DNA of 64,000 bases from Escherichia phage pEC-N1203-2Af.1: the sequence record OQ540978.1. One strand, given 5' to 3'. The notes below the pieces were generated by a model. That model was not told the DNA's origin and made no database searches. It saw only the letters and a list, made by a program, of their open reading frames with translations. Made by a program: the position numbers and the translations under genes. Positions within the stretch are counted from its first letter, which is position 1. Every line of letters begins with the position of its first letter. Positions 8,170-37,933 of the stretch are shown in pieces.

Positions 8170-8178
8170 TATACATTA
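8170..8178 (-). promoter_or_regulatory. TAATGTATA motif (candidate phage-sigma-dependent late promoter element)
   Basis: Minus-strand TAATGTATA about 38 nt upstream of ATG 8131; identical 9-mer upstream of gene 24947-25699. Confidence 0.4.
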
Positions 8179-28759: not shown

Positions 28760-31003
28760 TTACTTTTTACTTCCAAGACGTTTGCCCGGAATCCGTGAAT
28801 CTTTGAGAGAAGCTTGTTGCTCTTTCTTAGTTACATTTGCTTCTTTCTTCTGGAGTTCCAAAGTTTTATCCTGAACACGAGTTTGCTGAACAATCTTCTC
28901 TTGGTCAACCTGATGCTCCATAACCATCTGCAATTCTTTCAGTACAGACTCATACTGACGGACCTGCTGTTGCATAAGAGCTAGCTTGTGCTTAGCTTGT
29001 TCCAGAGTTGCATTGTTATCTTCTTTACGGTTTTCCAGAGTCATAGCATCTGCTGCATTTTCTTGCTTGAACTGCAACTCTTCCTGACGCAGACTTAATT
29101 CATCCGCAGCTTTCTGCTGTTCGAATGTAGTACGTTCACGCTGGTCGAATGCATCAGCAATCATCTTCTGAGAAGAAGCCTGTACGTTCTCAACCTGTGC
29201 TTTAGTCATCTCGAGCTGGAGGATTTCCATCGGAGACGGCTCAGGAGGCTGATACTGTTCCAGAGGCAGTAAGTATTTATGAGTGTCTTTAATACCCATC
29301 AACTCAAAGATCTGTGCAGTCATGTAACGGTCTTGCTCCAAACCGAAGAGAGGTGCTAGCTGTGCATCTGCTGCAATCAGCTGTTTCAAGCTAATCAGTT
29401 TCTGTGCACGTTCTGCTTTCTCATTAGGAGAGATGGCTACAACAACTTGAAGATTATGACGAGCTGGTAATTGTTTCGGATTAACCTGAACCATACCACG
29501 AGGAGTTTGTACCTCAATAGGAACTTCACCGTTTTCTCTGATAAGGCTGTAAATACCACGCATCAATTCAACCATACCGTTGTGAGCAATGTTACGACAT
29601 ACCATACGGAGACGGTTCTGTGCAGCATTCATCATCAAGCCTACGGTTGCATAAGCGTTATCGTTCTTAAACACATCAGGGTTGATACCCATGCCAAGTT
29701 TAGTTACACCGGTACGTGTCTCTTTAAGCTCCTCAGACATGCCTAGGAGGCCGTCAATACCTTGAGGTAGGTTATGGTATGGGAACAGGTCAATAGCGTC
29801 CTGACGTTCCATTTCAACCACTCCACCGGGACGGTTATCAAGCAGAGAGCGGCGATCGTATGCACCAACAAGAGCTTTGTATCGACCATAGTTAGCATTG
29901 TTGACGTTATCAATATAACCACGAACTAACGCGGTACGTAAATCCTGAATATCTTTCGTAATGTCATAGACTGATTGACCATAGAAGGAACCCGGAATCG
30001 GATACGGACAGAAGGTTACAAACGGAATGTGAGTTACTTCTTCAGTGTGAAGGATATGCTCACCAGCTTGAATAACCTGATAGAGTTTAGATTCTTTATT
30101 CTTATCTAGAACACCAGTACGGATGTAGTGCTCATAAACCCAAACCATAGTAGCGATATCTTCAGTATCTGTACCAATGTCAGCATCAATGTCCTGACGC
30201 CAGTCAGTACGAGACCAAGCAACTGTAGATTGAGTGGTATCCATCGTGTCTGTCCAGTCGTTGAATGCTTCAATCTCATCTTTAGGGAAGCCCATAGCAA
30301 CCAGATCTTCTTTAGAACGACGTACACGATGACAGAAGTATTGTGCATCTGCAAAAGAGGTAGCATGTTCATCAACAAAGATTTGCTCTGAAGGAACATA
30401 TTCAACTTTCACACGTTTAACAGTTTGTTCGTAAGTAACTTTAACATCAACTGTACCATCTTCGTTTTCTTCAGTGAATATTTCCAGATTCTTGAGTCCA
30501 CCAGCTTCTAATCCCTGAACATATGCAGCCAATGCTTCCGGTGGTACACCTTCAGCTTCTTCAGTTTGAGTAGAAGTGTGCTCATCCCAATAGTATTTGA
30601 TAAAAGAGTTACGAGTAACCAGACATTCTTGTGCAGCAGAGGAGATAATATTGTATCCCGGATTATCACGCAGAAGAATTTGGTTAACTAATTTAGTTGC
30701 TACATCAGCAGCATCAGAATCCTGTTGGTTATCAGCTACGAAAGTAACTGCTTCATCACCAGAACAGAATACGTTAATAATATCTTGCAGTGTACCGTTA
30801 ACAGATTCCCAAACAGTACGATCTACCCAACTAGAGCTGCCAGCAGTTACTGGTGCAGGTAAGTTACCATAGAAATATTCCCAAGCTTCACGAGCATAGC
30901 CCTTAACAGCCATGTCAACGTAACCTTGAGCGTAATTAAAACGACGTTGAAGGTCAACACGTAACTCGTCCAACACCTCTTCACTATATTTTTGCTTAGC
31001 CAT
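28760..31003 (-). CDS. Portal protein
   Basis: ORF 747 aa immediately downstream of large terminase; size and position typical; C-terminal coiled coil. Confidence 0.6.
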   Translation of the reverse strand: MAKQKYSEEVLDELRVDLQRRFNYAQGYVDMAVKGYAREAWEYFYGNLPAPVTAGSSSWVDRTVWESVNGTLQDIINVFCSGDEAVTFVADNQQDSDAADVATKLVNQILLRDNPGYNIISSAAQECLVTRNSFIKYYWDEHTSTQTEEAEGVPPEALAAYVQGLEAGGLKNLEIFTEENEDGTVDVKVTYEQTVKRVKVEYVPSEQIFVDEHATSFADAQYFCHRVRRSKEDLVAMGFPKDEIEAFNDWTDTMDTTQSTVAWSRTDWRQDIDADIGTDTEDIATMVWVYEHYIRTGVLDKNKESKLYQVIQAGEHILHTEEVTHIPFVTFCPYPIPGSFYGQSVYDITKDIQDLRTALVRGYIDNVNNANYGRYKALVGAYDRRSLLDNRPGGVVEMERQDAIDLFPYHNLPQGIDGLLGMSEELKETRTGVTKLGMGINPDVFKNDNAYATVGLMMNAAQNRLRMVCRNIAHNGMVELMRGIYSLIRENGEVPIEVQTPRGMVQVNPKQLPARHNLQVVVAISPNEKAERAQKLISLKQLIAADAQLAPLFGLEQDRYMTAQIFELMGIKDTHKYLLPLEQYQPPEPSPMEILQLEMTKAQVENVQASSQKMIADAFDQRERTTFEQQKAADELSLRQEELQFKQENAADAMTLENRKEDNNATLEQAKHKLALMQQQVRQYESVLKELQMVMEHQVDQEKIVQQTRVQDKTLELQKKEANVTKKEQQASLKDSRIPGKRLGSKK

Positions 31004-31064: not shown

Positions 31065-32606
31065 TTAGTAGCTCTGATTCCATCTGCTTACGTTTGCCTC
31101 ATACAAAGAAGCGCTTCCGTAGCTAACATCATGCTTAGAGCGACCACGATGTGTAACAGAGCACGCTGAATAACGCATTGCATCCATTAAGTCATCATGT
31201 TCTTTAATAATCTTACCAACCTTACGGTGATATCTAGCTTTCTCTTCGAATAGCTTAGCGTTAGCGGCTGTGTTAAAGACTTTAAAGCGTCCACTCATCA
31301 TTCTTTCTCGGATATCTGTGATTCCCGGTTCTACAAAGAAGTTCTTTTTACCATCCATTCCAATTTTGTTGTAGAAGGTCTCACTCTGTACGTTAACTCC
31401 TGCATTCTTATAGAATTGAGCAACAGATGAACCACTACCTTTCTCAGTATTGTCCGCATCATGCGGTAGGATGACAGGAATCCACTGACCACGACCATTA
31501 ATAGCTGGAGCATGATACACTGGAGTAAAGCCACCTTCTTTATATGAGTCGTAAACATAGATAGTATCCGTGTTTGCGTCGTAAGCTGTCCAAACAGCAG
31601 CAGTTGGGTGATCAATACCAATATCAATTGCACAGACACGTTTCCACGTATCAGGAATTTCGAATGGTTCACATTTAATTGTGTCATCCGATACATCATA
31701 AATCAAACCACTTCCTAACAATGGCATACCTTTTGAACGCATCTCTAATTGCCACGCTGGAATACCTTCAGTCATATCTTTTATATCTTGGTCAGTGATG
31801 TGTCCACCTAAGTCTGCATGAGCATCCCACCAAGAAGCATTCTGGAAATATAGAGAACCTGTGTTCTCATCTCCTTCACCTTTCATAAATTTATCTACCA
31901 GTTCAGTTAAACCGTTCTCTGGTGTAGCTGTAATTGTAACTAGACCTTTAGTTGTGAGTGTACGTGTGACGCACTGTGCGAATATAGCCATAGACTCGTA
32001 TGGATCTTCTTCGTCTAACCAAATGTAGTCAACTGTTGCACCCATCAATGTGTGTTCACCCTGTTGGGTTGAACGGAATTCTAATGTACTTAAACCGTCA
32101 AACTCTCCTCTCTCATTTTGATGTTTGATTTGTACGATTTGAAGTTTGTTACCATCTCGTTCTATCGTATCAATGACGATAGCATCACGAGGAATGACAC
32201 CTGTCCCTAATAAATTTGTATCCTTTCCGATAGGTGTACCAAACAGTTCCTTTTGCAATACCTTCCTTGTGGAATCCCCTGTAATACCAACTGCCCATGC
32301 TAAGATAGGTCTTTTAAATTTATATCCTGTCCACCAAGTTGGGTAGCGACCTGTGACATGACAAGCAAACTCGTATGCCTCGCTGTAAGATTTACCAACA
32401 CGGTTCGCTGCACACAAGAATCTAAAGCGATGCTTCAATCCTGCTGCATAAAATTTCTTTTGGAAGTCATACGCCTTGAAAGACAAAATCTTATTATACT
32501 TCCTCCATTGGTCACGCTCTTTCAACATATTCAATAGTGCTTTCTTTTCCTCTACACTAAGGTTGTTACCAGTTAGAGCTTCATAAATTTGTTTATCTAA
32601 TGACAT
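31065..32606 (-). CDS. Terminase large subunit
   Basis: ORF 513 aa; N-terminal ATPase (Walker A-like CAANRVGKS, Walker B-like DYIWLDEED) and C-terminal nuclease-like acidic residues (CAIDIGIDH...). Confidence 0.8.
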   Translation of the reverse strand: MSLDKQIYEALTGNNLSVEEKKALLNMLKERDQWRKYNKILSFKAYDFQKKFYAAGLKHRFRFLCAANRVGKSYSEAYEFACHVTGRYPTWWTGYKFKRPILAWAVGITGDSTRKVLQKELFGTPIGKDTNLLGTGVIPRDAIVIDTIERDGNKLQIVQIKHQNERGEFDGLSTLEFRSTQQGEHTLMGATVDYIWLDEEDPYESMAIFAQCVTRTLTTKGLVTITATPENGLTELVDKFMKGEGDENTGSLYFQNASWWDAHADLGGHITDQDIKDMTEGIPAWQLEMRSKGMPLLGSGLIYDVSDDTIKCEPFEIPDTWKRVCAIDIGIDHPTAAVWTAYDANTDTIYVYDSYKEGGFTPVYHAPAINGRGQWIPVILPHDADNTEKGSGSSVAQFYKNAGVNVQSETFYNKIGMDGKKNFFVEPGITDIRERMMSGRFKVFNTAANAKLFEEKARYHRKVGKIIKEHDDLMDAMRYSACSVTHRGRSKHDVSYGSASLYEANVSRWNQSY

Positions 32607-32723: not shown

Positions 32724-33197
32724 TTAACTCTCGTCCGCTTCCTCCCCCTTTTCAGCGTCCTCAGAGTTGTCTTCTTCTGGAGGCATAACGTCGATACCAA
32801 GTGCTCCAGTCAAGAAGTCCTTGATTTGTGCATTCAATGATTCTTCGTTGATTACATTCTCTTCCTCAATCTTAACTTCAACAGAGGCCGCCTTAGGGTA
32901 TACCAGATCTGCAACTTTTGATGCAGCCTTGAATCTAAGATCAGGTGGAATATTAGGATCTTCGTAAATTTGAATTAACACTTCATCAGGAGACAAATGA
33001 CTTGCAGCAACACGGTCCAACATTAATTGTGTCAGTTTACCTCTACTACCTCTGGGTCGTCCGAATTTATTTCCCTTTTGAAACTTCCCATTGCTTGGGT
33101 TCATACCACGGCTTTCAAGTTCTTCCGTTACTCCGGGTAATCTTCCTGTAATCTCAGCTACCTGTGCAGGTGTGAGTTCTCCGTTTTCTCCAAACAT
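32724..33197 (-). CDS. Putative terminase small subunit
   Basis: ORF 157 aa directly upstream of large terminase; basic GNKFGRPRGSRGK segment, acidic C-terminus. Confidence 0.45.
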   Translation of the reverse strand: MFGENGELTPAQVAEITGRLPGVTEELESRGMNPSNGKFQKGNKFGRPRGSRGKLTQLMLDRVAASHLSPDEVLIQIYEDPNIPPDLRFKAASKVADLVYPKAASVEVKIEEENVINEESLNAQIKDFLTGALGIDVMPPEEDNSEDAEKGEEADES

Positions 33198-33218
33198 TTT
33201 ATACTCCTTCTACATTAT

Positions 33219-33248
33219 CAACAACACAAAAAGCCTCCCAAGGGAGGC
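33219..33248 (-). terminator. Rho-independent terminator
   Basis: Minus-strand GCCUCCC-UUGG-GAGGC followed by UUUUUGUGUUGUUG. Confidence 0.6.
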
Positions 33249-33253
33249 AAACA

Positions 33254-33940
33254 TTACTTACAATCACCAACGGACAGGTTAAACATCTTACCTAAAGCAA
33301 TCGTCTCACCCTCCCACGGAAGTTCTACACCCTTCTCTTCCTCTAAAATAATAGAGCCGTCGACCAAAAATTTTTCGTAGTCTCGCAGTGCGTCGTCTAC
33401 TAACTCACTCTTGTGAATCCACGTAATTGTTTCCGTACCATCCTCTTCGATTCGAACATCACGATGCCATTCATCTTTGGAGGTAATGTAATCATGGAGC
33501 ATTTCATATTCAGCTTCTTCAATCATCTCAATCATTGCACGAGCATAGTCAGGGAGGTGATCATGTTTAGTAGATACATACGGAACAACTTCTAGATTGG
33601 AAGGACACTTACGTTTAACTTCCTTTGCTACAGTGAAATAGTCTTTCACATCTTTAGCTTCTGTACGAGGAATCAAACCTTCCCATATTTCACGGGTTGA
33701 AGGAGCATAACCATACACAGAACCATGAGCCAGTTGTTTTACCATCTCAACTCGGGACTTACCTCCAGTAGTTTCATGAACACGGTTCAGATAGAGAATG
33801 TCCTCTGGTAAAGGACGGAGAGGACCACCATTGAAAACAACCTCGCCTTTACATCCCATGTTCTCATAGATTGCATTCAGTGTATTAGTTCCTGTCATAT
33901 TGTTATTCATCATTCTCTCCTTCAGTGTCAGTGTTATCAC
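33254..33940 (-). CDS. Hypothetical protein
   Basis: ORF 228 aa at head of late operon; no motif. Confidence 0.45.
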   Translation of the reverse strand: MITLTLKERMMNNNMTGTNTLNAIYENMGCKGEVVFNGGPLRPLPEDILYLNRVHETTGGKSRVEMVKQLAHGSVYGYAPSTREIWEGLIPRTEAKDVKDYFTVAKEVKRKCPSNLEVVPYVSTKHDHLPDYARAMIEMIEEAEYEMLHDYITSKDEWHRDVRIEEDGTETITWIHKSELVDDALRDYEKFLVDGSIILEEEKGVELPWEGETIALGKMFNLSVGDCK

Positions 33941-34175: not shown

Positions 34176-34198
34176 AATTCTTCTCCTCTGAATAAGAT

Positions 34199-34309
34199 TC
34201 AATCTACCCATTCACCGTTGCCACCTTTTTGGTAGAACCATGCATTGCGGGATACTGAGTACACTATGTCCTTATAAATTAAGGAGTGTAGTTCTTTTAA
34301 AAACTTCAT
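34199..34309 (-). CDS. Small hypothetical protein (36 aa)
   Basis: Untracked ORF MKFLKELHSLIYKD... with an RBS nearly identical to that of 33903-34175 (TTATTCAGAGGA). Confidence 0.25.
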   Translation of the reverse strand: MKFLKELHSLIYKDIVYSVSRNAWFYQKGGNGEWVD

Positions 34310-34332
34310 ATTCTATCCTCTGAATAAAAGTA

Positions 34333-34454
34333 TAAAGGGCTAGGCATATCCAACCCGTAAAGGCCACATCATACTAACAACCCGTGTACGCTGAAGTAAA
34401 GGGCATGTCATAAAGGGGACTTCATAAAGGCCATGTCACGTTAAGGCCTGTCCA
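34333..34454. repeat. Iteron-like array: six copies of 14-bp unit TAAAGGSSAYKTCA, four in tandem
   Basis: Units at 34333, 34358, 34397, 34411, 34425 and 34441; the middle three are contiguous head-to-tail, the last follows a 2-nt insertion. Confidence 0.6.
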
Positions 34455-34740
34455 CCCACGTACTGAATCTCAACTTACCACATTCCTTACACTTCCATGT
34501 TGATAGGTAGAGACCATGTATTCTTTCATCCCCGTAAGCTTTACGAAGAAGGTAGTAATTGTGCTTACACTTCATCCGTCTAAATACTTTAATTAGATCC
34601 ATTAAGTTCTCTCTTAAGCTTATATACATCTGTTTAAAATTCTGATTTGACCGAGTGGGGCTAGGCACTCCGCGGCGAATTGTTAAAAAGGGGGAGTCCT
34701 CATTTAAAAAATGGTTATTGGCAATGCCTTTACACCTTCT

Positions 34741-34820
34741 TCCGTGTTCCAACCTTTCCCCGTGCCTACTCCCCGTTATTCTTTCCCCGTGTATACTACC
34801 CAATACATTTACTACCCGTT
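34741..34820. repeat. Short repeat array YCCCCGTK (about 14-bp spacing)
   Basis: CCCCGT copies at 34758, 34771, 34785 and 34815. Confidence 0.5.
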
Positions 34821-35142
34821 TATTTAGTACCCCTTTAAAGAGTAGGAGAAAGGCTAGTCACTGATAATGATTAGATTAAGGCACTATGAATAGGCTAATA
34901 ATACCCCACAGTTACTACCCACTTCCCCCATAGTTTGATTGTAAATAGTTTCAATGGTAATGATTATGAGTGTAATAATGATGTATGTATTAATTAAGTG
35001 GAAGATAGTAATTAACAGTTATTATTTCTTTTTATTCTTTTCTTTTTCAGCGTGCGTGAGTACGCAGTACGAACGGTTTTTGATGTTTGAGTTATACAAT
35101 TATTTAAGTGGTATATTATTACCGCACTATCTGGCCATGCTT

Positions 35143-35206
35143 CCCCGTGGTCTGTTCTGCGGTTGTGTGTTCCCCGTCCTATATAGTAGAAATAGTTTAC
35201 CCGTGG
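35143..35206. repeat. Second YCCCCGTG repeat cluster (about 28-bp spacing)
   Basis: CCCCGTG at 35143, CCCCGTC at 35172, CCCGTG at 35200. Confidence 0.45.
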
Positions 35207-35273
35207 TTGCTTGTCTTCCTTGTTAAGTAGTAGTAAATTGAAGCCTATTGATTGAGTGATTGGAGTGATAAAA

Positions 35274-37009: not shown

Positions 37010-37085
37010 GCTTAATCTTTCTCCTTTATTGTGCCGTAGTCATGCCTATGGTCATAATCTATCTGATGTTTTAAAGCCTCCTGAA

Positions 37086-37112
37086 AGCCTCGCCATGAGG
37101 CTTTTTTCTTTT
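37086..37112 (+). terminator. Rho-independent terminator
   Basis: AGCCUC-GCCAU-GAGGCU followed by UUUUUUCUUUUC. Confidence 0.6.
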
Positions 37113-37332: not shown

Positions 37333-37411
37333 CGCTCTTTAAAAATCAGGCTAGAAAGTGAAAAATACTTGAAAAAGTATTTGACAACTGGAAAGCCTAA
37401 CCTATAATGAG
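37333..37411 (+). repeat. 79-bp direct repeat, copy 1 (promoter module)
   Basis: Identical to 37552-37630; contains CGCTCTTTAA motif, AAATACTT/AAGTATTT inverted repeat, TTGACA and TATAAT. Confidence 0.8.
37381..37408 (+). promoter_or_regulatory. Strong sigma70-type early promoter (TTGACA-N16-TATAAT) with A/T-rich upstream element
   Basis: Consensus -35 at 37381-37386 and consensus -10 at 37403-37408. Confidence 0.6.
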
Positions 37412-37551
37412 CTTAGAAAGACAAGATGACCGCTCAAGTAACTCCCTAGTGAGTGAAGCAAGTCAGACGCAGGCAGGCGGATACCATTCCCCGGAATAAT
37501 CGCAGGTTATCTGATTATCAAATGGTGTTATGGGAGCCATACAGCTTTAAA

Positions 37552-37630
37552 CGCTCTTTAAAAATCAGGCTAGAAAGTGAAAAATACTTGAAAAAGTATT
37601 TGACAACTGGAAAGCCTAACCTATAATGAG
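37552..37630 (+). repeat. 79-bp direct repeat, copy 2 (promoter module)
   Basis: Identical to 37333-37411. Confidence 0.8.
37600..37627 (+). promoter_or_regulatory. Strong sigma70-type early promoter (TTGACA-N16-TATAAT)
   Basis: Consensus -35 at 37600-37605 and -10 at 37622-37627. Confidence 0.6.
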
Positions 37631-37904
37631 CACAAGTCAGCGATGACGTGAAACATCCCCGCTCTTTAAAAATTTATCATCTTGCCCTTTCGCATAGATT
37701 CACGCGAGATAAGGGAAAAGAATAAAAGAAGATGATAAAAAGAGTTTGACAAGCTAACACGACGTGTTAAGCTGTAAATGTAGTAACCGCTCTTTAACAA
37801 TATGGATCATAAGTTTAAGCCTCATCGCTTGATCTTCAATCAAACAAAGCTGATTGATATATCCTCCCAATAGCGGGAACGATGAAAAAAGATTAAAAAA
37901 GCGG

Positions 37905-37933
37905 TTGACAGCGAAAACATCATGGTCCATAAT
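37905..37933 (+). promoter_or_regulatory. Sigma70-type early promoter (TTGACA-N17-CATAAT) with upstream A-tract
   Basis: -35 at 37905-37910, -10 at 37928-37933, preceded by AAAAAAGATTAAAAAAG. Confidence 0.55.

Follow-up and report, generated by a model that had tools for sequence, protein, structure and literature searches.

A 193-bp direct terminal repeat (DTR) has been mapped by experiment in the Kuravirus phiEco32, is indicated by sharp drop-offs of the sequencing reads in SU10, and has also been found in Paul and YF01 (PMC4281155; PMC9965538). The literature covers the DTR itself, a conserved core at nt 130-170 and the repeat CCCTTTTTTA (PMC9965538; PMC4281155). Here, we describe two arrays of short direct repeats, one built on CCCCGT and the other on TAAAGG, that lie in and beside the homologous sequence of Escherichia phage pEC-N1203-2Af.1 (OQ540978.1). 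They are located at 34333-35206 of the 64,000-nucleotide stretch of DNA that was analysed, referred to below as the window. The DTR is thus already known, and arrays of this T7-style kind on it were not found described in the accessible DTR literature, a scope outside which the primary phiEco32 papers (Savalia 2008, Pavlova 2012) lie.

Arrays of short repeats at a terminal repeat are also present in T7, where Dunn and Studier reportedly named them SRL and SRR in 1983. In the T7 sequence, CCTAAAG occurs three times within the terminal repeat of 160 bp, and about 12 further copies, spaced at a 13-bp period, follow directly beside it at nt 175-340. The remark on T7 repeat arrays made in a preliminary description of the present locus therefore holds on T7's own sequence. 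Terminase recognition arrays are P1 pac, with seven TGATCA/G hexamers flanking the cut, the R-sites of lambda cosB, and pacL/pacR of SPP1.

Position of the arrays at the genome ends

The comparison set consisted of GenBank phage records; searches of IMG/VR gave only 3-4 loci. The 1.8 kb around the arrays matched 97 phage records at 80-91% identity, all from phiEco32-like coliphages or Shigella phages. The matching records belong to the Gordonclarkvirinae, mostly to Kuravirus. For closer comparison, clade 1 comprised 13 Kuravirus genomes including the window, and clade 2 comprised Bas86, Bas87, TH43, MLP3 and 101114BS3. From these matches, the window is best described as a circularly permuted assembly of a Kuravirus (phiEco32-like) coliphage, its plus strand being the reverse complement of the phiEco32 record. 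The genes for the portal (28760-31003), the large terminase (TerL; 31065-32606), a 157-aa protein (32724-33197) and a 228-aa protein (33254-33940) run leftward and correspond to phi32_8 to phi32_5, which at the left end of phiEco32 point rightward. From 35256 on, small early-type genes follow in the rightward direction. The features that define the junction between these two gene groups are the following.

34663-34855, no strand: single collapsed 193-bp DTR, in which the plus strand of the window is the reverse complement of phiEco32 nt 193-1
34659-34666, plus strand: inner DTR border GGCT/AGGC, with the predicted cut (slash) between 34662 and 34663, which would give the virion end on the early-gene side
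34852-34859, plus strand: outer DTR border GGCT/AGTC, whose predicted cut would give the virion end on the late-gene side
34685-34735, no strand: most conserved core of the DTR, AAAAAGGGGGAGTCCTCATTTAAAAAA...GGCAATGCCTTTAC, in its inner half
34630-34662, no strand: near-invariant block GTTTAAAATTCTGATTTGACCGAGTGG... adjoining the DTR on the late-arm side, from the alignment of relatives

The DTR was located from the ends of related records. In the alignment, position 1 of phiEco32 corresponds to window 34855. In a blastn search with 34300-35260, the records of Paul, CHD5UKE1, YF01, WFI101126, SU10, phiEco32 and LAMP all begin at query position 556 (window 34855), and that of IMEP8 terminates at query position 364 (window 34663). 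Because seven relatives' records begin at the former position and one ends at the latter, we assign the DTR to 34663-34855 (193 bp). A four-way alignment, in which the left ends of three relatives stop exactly at 34855, shows the same border. Nucleotides 1-193 are annotated as DTR in Paul (PhageTerm) and likewise in YF01 (nanopore reads), and the first 193 nt of phiEco32 are identical to its last 193 nt. The mean column identity of the DTR with phiEco32-like relatives is 84%. The window contains a single copy, so the assembly must be permuted or concatemer-like, with the DTR collapsed into 34663-34855. The synteny is that of Kuravirus: one flank carries gene 1, gp4-like and gp5-like genes, a putative small terminase (TerS) gene, TerL and portal, and the opposite flank small early genes.

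Judged by this homology, the arrays lie on the joined physical ends of a phiEco32-like podophage genome, with the DTR linking the two arms. The virion DNA is accordingly read as linear with a 193-bp DTR, and the window as mimicking the replicative concatemer, in which the late (structural) arm extends leftward and the early arm rightward.

Both borders of the DTR contain the heptamer GGCTAG(N)C, and relatives keep GGC(T/C)AGC. The sequence GGCTAGNC occurs four times in the window, with a third copy at 34338, within the first TAAAGG unit. The presence of GGCT/AG followed by G or T and then C at both borders suggests a short nuclease recognition or cut motif for end formation. The DTR core at 34685-34735 corresponds to the "highly conserved region nt ~130-170" of the published DTR (PMC9965538). 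In the adjoining block at 34630-34662, the run from AAAATTCTGATTTGACCGA on does not vary among the 13 clade-1 genomes and Bas86, with single substitutions at the 5' edge and after GACCGA; the other clade-2 genomes differ by a few bases. The authors of the SU10 study regarded this stretch as a possible sigma-70 promoter for CDS1 (PMC4281155). The predicted fold of the DTR strand was no better than that of shuffled sequences (z = 0.44), which rules out a hairpin or G-quadruplex-type reading of the DTR as the main feature. An Rfam scan of the region gave no family and only two chance-level matches.

The CCCCGT and TAAAGG arrays and their conservation

The repeats fall into two motif sets, distributed over the DTR and both arms as follows.

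34741-34837, plus strand: C-rich array in the DTR, about seven units of ~14 bp (yTTyCCCGTk), from motif scans
35143-35204, plus strand: three CCCCGT/ACCCGT copies on the early arm (35143, 35172 and 35199), 27-29 bp apart, from motif scans
34333-34454, plus strand: array of the 14-mer TAAAGGnnnnnnCA in a non-coding spacer of the late arm, 225-330 bp inward from the late-arm end, from repeat search, TRF and shuffles
34719-34732, minus strand: inverted TAAAGG-type unit inside the DTR, reading TGGCAATGCCTTTA on the plus strand, from an inverted repeat search

The seven copies of YCCCCGTK at about 14- and 28-bp spacing that the preliminary description had listed are present, four of them strict (34757, 34770, 34784 and 35142) and three with one mismatch (34813, 35171 and 35198). 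Their spacings are 13, 14 and 29 bp, then 329 bp, then 29 and 27 bp. Three further CCCGT copies, at 34354, 34381 and 34531, had been missed. Altogether, 10 of the 40 CCCGT occurrences in the window fall within 851 bp (34354-35204), all on the plus strand. The same region holds 10 of the 28 matches to [AC]CCCGT, whose densest one-strand cluster in 900 bp has 10 members, compared with 4 in 300 dinucleotide-preserving shuffles. Within the DTR, strict ACCCGT/CCCCGT motifs start at 34758, 34771, 34785 and 34814. Degenerate units are found at about 34744, 34798 (TACCCAA) and 34828 (TACCCCTTT). Counting these, about seven C-rich units recur every 13-16 bp in 34741-34837, filling the outer half of the DTR; their distance is 18-115 bp to the outer border and 78-175 bp to the inner one. 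The same orientation continues on both arms, where the ACCCGT copies are 280-310 bp distant from the DTR borders; the three on the early arm span 290-350 bp past the DTR. The octamer CCTACTCC (34765-34772), which we take to resemble the nick-site core of phiKMV, is present as a single copy and was not used in the argument.

The TAAAGG array had been presented as six 14-bp units, four of them head-to-tail. The array itself is real, but a repeat search resolved it into five 14-nt units (34333, 34358, 34397, 34411 and 34425), of which the last three are exactly tandem, and a sixth, degenerate unit, GTTAAGGCCTGTCCA, at 34440-34454. The sixth follows at an offset of 16 nt and contains the stop codon of a gene for a 53-aa protein. 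The consensus TAAAGGSSAYKTCA is exact in three units and has one mismatch in another, and every match to it with 0-1 mismatch in the window falls within this array. TRF reported 3.0 copies at period 14. The best cluster of TAAAGG......CA within 110 bp has five members, against two in 300 dinucleotide shuffles. Two ACCCGT copies (34353 and 34380) are interleaved with the units. Inside the DTR, a second inverted copy, CCCTTTA, is found at 34824-34837 in addition to the one listed above. A terminator-like hairpin at 34337-34356 was dropped as a terminator, since relatives lack it.

The end of the TAAAGG array (34438) is about 320 bp from the CCCCGT array (34757), close to the 300 bp first estimated. 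Both arrays share a period of about 14 bp. A 14-nt period implies that they are not coding (peptide) repeats. Scans with the consensus sequences of sigma-70 (TTGACA-N17-TATAAT) and of the gp36 motif (tAATGTAtA) gave no match within the units of either array.

The repeat layout is kept in 13 Kuravirus genomes. The four CCCGT copies of the DTR have identical offsets from the DTR core (+69, +82, +96 and +125) in 12 of them, and Bas94 is off by 1-2 bp. The CCTTTA offsets, +37 and +142, are fixed in 12 of the 13 clade-1 genomes, the window included; Bas94 keeps only +37. On the early arm, three copies about 29 bp apart are found in 11 of the 12 clade-1 relatives, with two in Bas94 and four in SGF2. 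The late-arm array contains two CCCGT copies in clade 1, and the CCCGT strand is always the same. In clade 2, the DTR homologue measures about 249 bp and all three clusters are kept, with the motif ACCC(A/G)T, mostly as CCCAT. The clade-2 DTR carries three TACCCAT and one TACCCGT at spacings of 14, 30 and 30 bp. The clade-2 early arm has five ACCC(A/G)T copies, in a context that can be aligned only poorly with clade 1. Between the two clades, the gene-1 protein differs by about 40%. TAAAGG...CA units are present in both clades in 4-7 copies, with indels between units.

In some phages, small acidic ORFs (MTE[DE][ED]YGSF..EEDYE...HG) stand between TAAAGG units; the corresponding part of the window, at about 34385-34440, has no insert. 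phiEco32 has such an ORF at about 490-640, and the window retains only ACACGGGTTGTTAG, which aligns with the 3' end of such ORFs. The insertion sites differ between three groups of phages, namely phiEco32/MN03/phiEc_1, PE006/XT73/SGF2, and TH43.

More distant relatives, Salmonella phage 7-11 and Cronobacter phage GAP52, keep a homologue of the DTR core (AAAAGGGG(G)AAGTGGGTCG). Their junctions, of 2.8 and 2.4 kb respectively, have no annotated genes across the record ends and share the DTR core and a T-rich...CAGTG block. On the late side, both carry ACACTGAWA in 4-6 copies. Phage 7-11 additionally has four copies of TATAACATC and three of TATCCAYAC, and GAP52 has eight of CCTCAAT. These short repeats stand at places equivalent to the Kuravirus arrays. 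Lineage-specific motifs at the same places form a pattern that would be expected of protein sites co-evolving with their reader. Two further candidates for shared elements were not retained: ACGCTGAWG, as a flanking motif, is common throughout coding sequence, and a GG-n4-5-TCATA unit shared with 7-11 and GAP52 differs in register. The records of 7-11 and GAP52 are not terminally redundant, and neither begins at the place that corresponds to the end of phiEco32. In GAP52 (JN882286), an unannotated spacer at the start of the record contains five perfect DnaA boxes (TTATCCACA/TGTGGATAA) in about 190 bp, at about 440-640.

Genes and promoters flanking the junction

The genes and predicted signals nearest to the arrays are listed below.

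34441-34602, minus strand: gene 1 homologue encoding a 53-aa CxH...CxxC protein (phrog_7696, E = 2e-16)
34199-34309, minus strand: possible 36-aa gene with a GAGGA ribosome-binding site, directly downstream of the TAAAGG array, its start region kept in 172-1, PE006, MN05, NJ01 and SGF2
32724-33197, minus strand: 157-aa protein, candidate TerS from the YF01 annotation, encoded directly upstream of the large terminase gene
33209-33217, minus strand: late promoter of the gp36-sigma type, TAATGTAGA, 11 nt before the 157-aa gene
33225-33250, minus strand: intrinsic terminator GCCTCCCTTGGGAGGCTTTTTGTG, just ahead of the late promoter
35097-35125, plus strand: conserved extended -10-like element (ATTATTTAAGTGGTATATTATTACCGCA; core TGGTATATT), nearly invariant in clade 1 and reading TGGTAATTT in clade 2

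The arrays had been assigned to a divergent control region at the head of the late operon. The promoter at 33209-33217, before the 157-aa gene that precedes the terminase gene, is the true head of that operon. Its sequence, TAATGTAGA, is identical to the SU10 "late promoter 1480 gttgataatgtagaaggagtataaaatg" of Table S2 in the SU10 paper (PMC4281155). The genes lying from the DTR to 33250 are a unit of their own, close to the genome end. The region of the arrays is instead the junction of the virion DNA ends, and it is not simply a divergent promoter region because the two arms are not contiguous in virion DNA. Exact TAATGTATA sites also occur on the minus strand at 8170, 13398 and 25733. A further gp36-type match, GATGTATATA (34621-34630, minus strand), was rejected as a promoter, since it is not conserved in phiEco32, where promoters were mapped. 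The match appears in reverse orientation in 172-1, MN05, NJ01 and O18-011.

On the early arm, the element at 35097-35125 is a candidate promoter of the first early-arm genes, and the three early-arm CCCGT copies would then sit in the leader. It was missed by the consensus promoter scan because its -35 is weak. Consensus or near-consensus sigma-70 promoters occur at 37381, 37600 and 37905 (plus strand), after a strong terminator at 37083-37105. We regard the promoters at 37381-37933 as the main early promoter cluster by prediction, 2.2-3 kb in from the genome end. The same arrangement, with the early cluster behind a terminator, has been described for SU10 and phiEco32 (PMC4281155). Several other sequences of the early arm are also conserved or repeated. 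A highly conserved block at 34920-35002 reads CCCCCATAGTT...AATAGTTTCAATGGTAATGATTATGAGTGTAATAATGATGTATGTATTAATTAAGTGG. The sequence GATGTATGTAT bears a partial likeness to the gp36 promoter motif. The sequence ATTAAGTGG occurs twice, 110 bp apart, and its second copy (35099-35116) overlaps the TGGTATATT -10-like element. Both Kuravirus clades keep the tract TTTCTTTTTCAGCGTGC (35020-35056), T-rich and with CAGCG at its end, and 7-11 and GAP52 have it as TTTTCAGTG.

Two ORFs over the repeats had been dismissed as probable artefacts. The dismissal probably stands for 34655-34864, which lies within the DTR and is likely spurious. It does not fully hold for 34441-34803, whose last 162 nt (34441-34602) contain the real 53-aa gene. 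The 53-aa protein has invariant C12, H14, C38 and C41, a zinc-ribbon-like pattern, and orthologues in 20 relatives. This gene is often missed, or annotated in the wrong frame or with an extension, so the comparison is of use for annotation. In phiEco32, the annotated phi32_1 is another frame over the gene-1 DNA (phiEco32 296-496), and the relatives' proteins measure 53-54 aa. In Paul, gene 1 (CPT_Paul_001) is annotated with an N-terminal extension that reaches into the DTR. The junction likewise reveals that the assembly is permuted and where the true ends belong. Further into the late arm, small genes share a repeated translation-start leader, TTATTCAGAGGA, and TTATTCAGAGGAnnGAATnATG is found on the minus strand at 34177-34198 and 34308-34331. 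The 36-aa ORF at 34199-34309 stands behind one leader copy and has no annotation in relatives.

The 157-aa protein is encoded beside TerL. Its orthologue in YF01 is annotated as a putative TerS (HHpred similarity to PaP3 TerS). Identity is 98-100% among four Kuravirus orthologues (172-1, Paul, YF01 and phiEco32), about 92% in clade 2 and about 50% in 7-11 and GAP52. Searches for a TerS family with Pfam, NCBIfam and phmmer against PDB were negative, and PHROGs places the protein under unknown function. A single-sequence AlphaFold (AF2) model had a pLDDT of 56.6 and was unusable.

Possible roles of the arrays and comparison with known systems

Even for T7, little is understood of how a phage with short, exact terminal repeats recognises the concatemer junction, cuts it twice and duplicates the repeat. 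T7 processes its junction with the participation of its phage RNA polymerase; Kuraviruses lack such an enzyme (PMC4281155), and for this reason the T7 model is inapplicable as it stands to phiEco32-like phages. We propose that the arrays are packaging or end-processing signals, that is, multi-site binding arrays at the concatemer junction, and we put the chances of this proposal at about even. Among the roles first suggested (replication origin, packaging signal near genome ends, or regulator binding), the one tied to genome ends fits the location best, as the CCCCGT array lies inside the DTR homologue, and an origin is disfavoured. An oligomeric DNA-binding protein of the packaging or end-maturation machinery, most likely the candidate TerS of 157 aa, would bind both motif sets. 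Binding along sites of 14-bp period would mark the junction and set the polarity, and the bound arrays would position the large terminase for cuts at the two GGCT/AG sites bounding the DTR. The DTR would then be duplicated, as in T7. The early genes point inward from 34663, and the end there should therefore be the first to enter the cell and the last to be packaged. By the general first-in/last-out rule, the late arm would be packaged first because the early arm enters first, and packaging would start at the late-arm end, where the TAAAGG array and the invariant block are located.

Several points weigh against the packaging proposal. Binding, cutting or packaging data on these motifs were not found for any Kuravirus, and we know of no established role for the analogous T7 arrays. 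The termini of this isolate are placed by homology, not from its reads. The TerS assignment comes from a published HHpred hint, to which our own sequence searches and model added no confirmation, and the protein is accordingly called a candidate. A gene separates the TAAAGG array from the DTR. The array is also an indel hot spot with changing small ORF cassettes, and a role as recombination site or cassette boundary would also fit it. Additionally, two of the late-arm ACCCGT copies align with the 3' end of the phiEco32 small ORF and may be a remnant of it.

Alternatively, the repeats could be operator arrays at both genome ends, through which a phage regulator times or shuts off the end-proximal operons, namely that from gene 1 to the gene of the 228-aa protein and the first one of the early arm. 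The 53-aa zinc-ribbon protein or a host protein would be the candidate reader, and the middle of the region does hold the gene for a conserved small putative DNA-binding protein. On the early arm, the three copies come right after the conserved extended -10-like element and fall within the leader of the first genes there. On the late arm, gene 1 is separated by the TAAAGG array from the small genes that follow it, in an operon that ends at the terminator before the true late promoter. The SU10 authors also predict sigma-70 promoters at both ends (PMC4281155). However, four to seven units stand inside the DTR, away from any predicted promoter, and the arrays overlap no promoter consensus. A 14-bp period would place successive sites on different helix faces, which is unusual for cooperative repressors, and the known regulators of the group (the gp36 sigma factor and gp79) act on RNA polymerase, not on DNA (PMC4281155). 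We consider an operator function unlikely.

Somewhat different evidence bears on replication. The arrays might form an iteron-type origin, or a priming or recombination site that regenerates the terminal repeat and forms concatemers. The direct repeats adjoin a 70% A+T stretch at 34875-35100 (GC 0.29-0.30), and the cumulative GC skew has its minimum at the junction, yet a change of coding strand explains the skew switch equally well. The five perfect DnaA boxes in the equivalent early-arm spacer of GAP52 indicate that this spacer can host replication-type sites; within one mismatch, DnaA boxes were absent from the junctions of this phage, phiEco32 and Bas86. The repeats had been called iteron-like, a label that we abandon: their cores of 6-9 bp recur every 14 bp, whereas iterons measure 17-22 bp and have helical-repeat spacing, and no initiator-like gene or family was found among the neighbouring genes. 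Moreover, sites within the terminal repeat would be duplicated and present at each end, an odd arrangement if the origin is unique. A replication role thus appears quite unlikely to us. We attach a similarly low probability to the view that the repeats have no dedicated function, with the TAAAGG units being recombination scars or boundaries of mobile ORF cassettes, the C-rich units arising by replication slippage, and the region being young and little diverged. The TAAAGG copy number does vary from 4 to 7, small-ORF insertions begin and end at units, and the small genes here share the repeated leader TTATTCAGAGGA. Conversely, the cores (TAAAGG...CA and ACCCRT) and their orientation persist across clades that differ by about 40% in the gene-1 protein and align poorly on the early arm, the DTR offsets are fixed in 12 genomes, and 7-11 and GAP52 have analogous arrays with other motifs at the same place.

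The proposal of packaging signals can be extended, tentatively and with a clearly lower probability than the proposal itself. In short-DTR phages without an RNA polymerase of their own, the two arrays together may be the platform for packaging recognition, read by a ring-shaped TerS, with the motifs serving as specificity codes. The DNA would be laid along or around the ring, one 14-bp unit per subunit, and the array of units would set the polarity and the register of the two GGCT/AG cuts 193 bp apart. ACCCGT, ACCCAT, CCTCAAT, TATAACATC and ACACTGA would then be codes that stop co-infecting related phages from packaging each other's DNA. If true, this would also hint at the job of the unexplained CCTAAAG arrays of T7. 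Kuraviruses serve as therapeutic coliphages. The junction offers mutable targets in the form of oriented motifs of 14-bp period in and around the DTR, identical GGCT/AG borders and a nearly invariant candidate TerS.

Among known systems, the origin iterons of plasmids and phages resemble the arrays in being tandem direct repeats in non-coding DNA near an A+T-rich stretch. They differ in that the present units are too short and repeat every 14 bp, and in that neither an initiator gene nor a DnaA box was found nearby. P1 pac, lambda cosB and the SPP1 pac sites are similar in having clustered short sub-sites near a terminase cut, and there an oligomeric reader of the small-terminase type gives packaging its polarity. 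In the present junction, by contrast, two putative cuts 193 bp apart enclose a segment that is duplicated, the motifs, spacing and proteins are unrelated, and the binding is only predicted. The DTR of the Kuraviruses phiEco32, SU10, Paul and YF01 is homologous in sequence, ends at the same bases and has the same flanking genes; compared with those records, the repeat is present once here, in a permuted assembly, and the ends of this isolate are placed by homology.

The context of the arrays shows no sequence homology to that in T7. Two different motifs (ACCCRT and TAAAGG...CA) are present, and the TAAAGG array does not abut the DTR but lies 225 bp from its border with a gene between, while two inverted copies are found inside the DTR. 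The TAAAG pentamer is common to CCTAAAG and TAAAGGnnnnnnCA; nothing else is shared, and ACCCRT is unrelated. By analogy, the parallel with T7 is therefore best seen as one of design, not of homology or of a proven mechanism. As in T7, a short core in one orientation recurs at a 13-14-bp period at the terminal repeat of a concatemer-packaging, short-DTR podophage.

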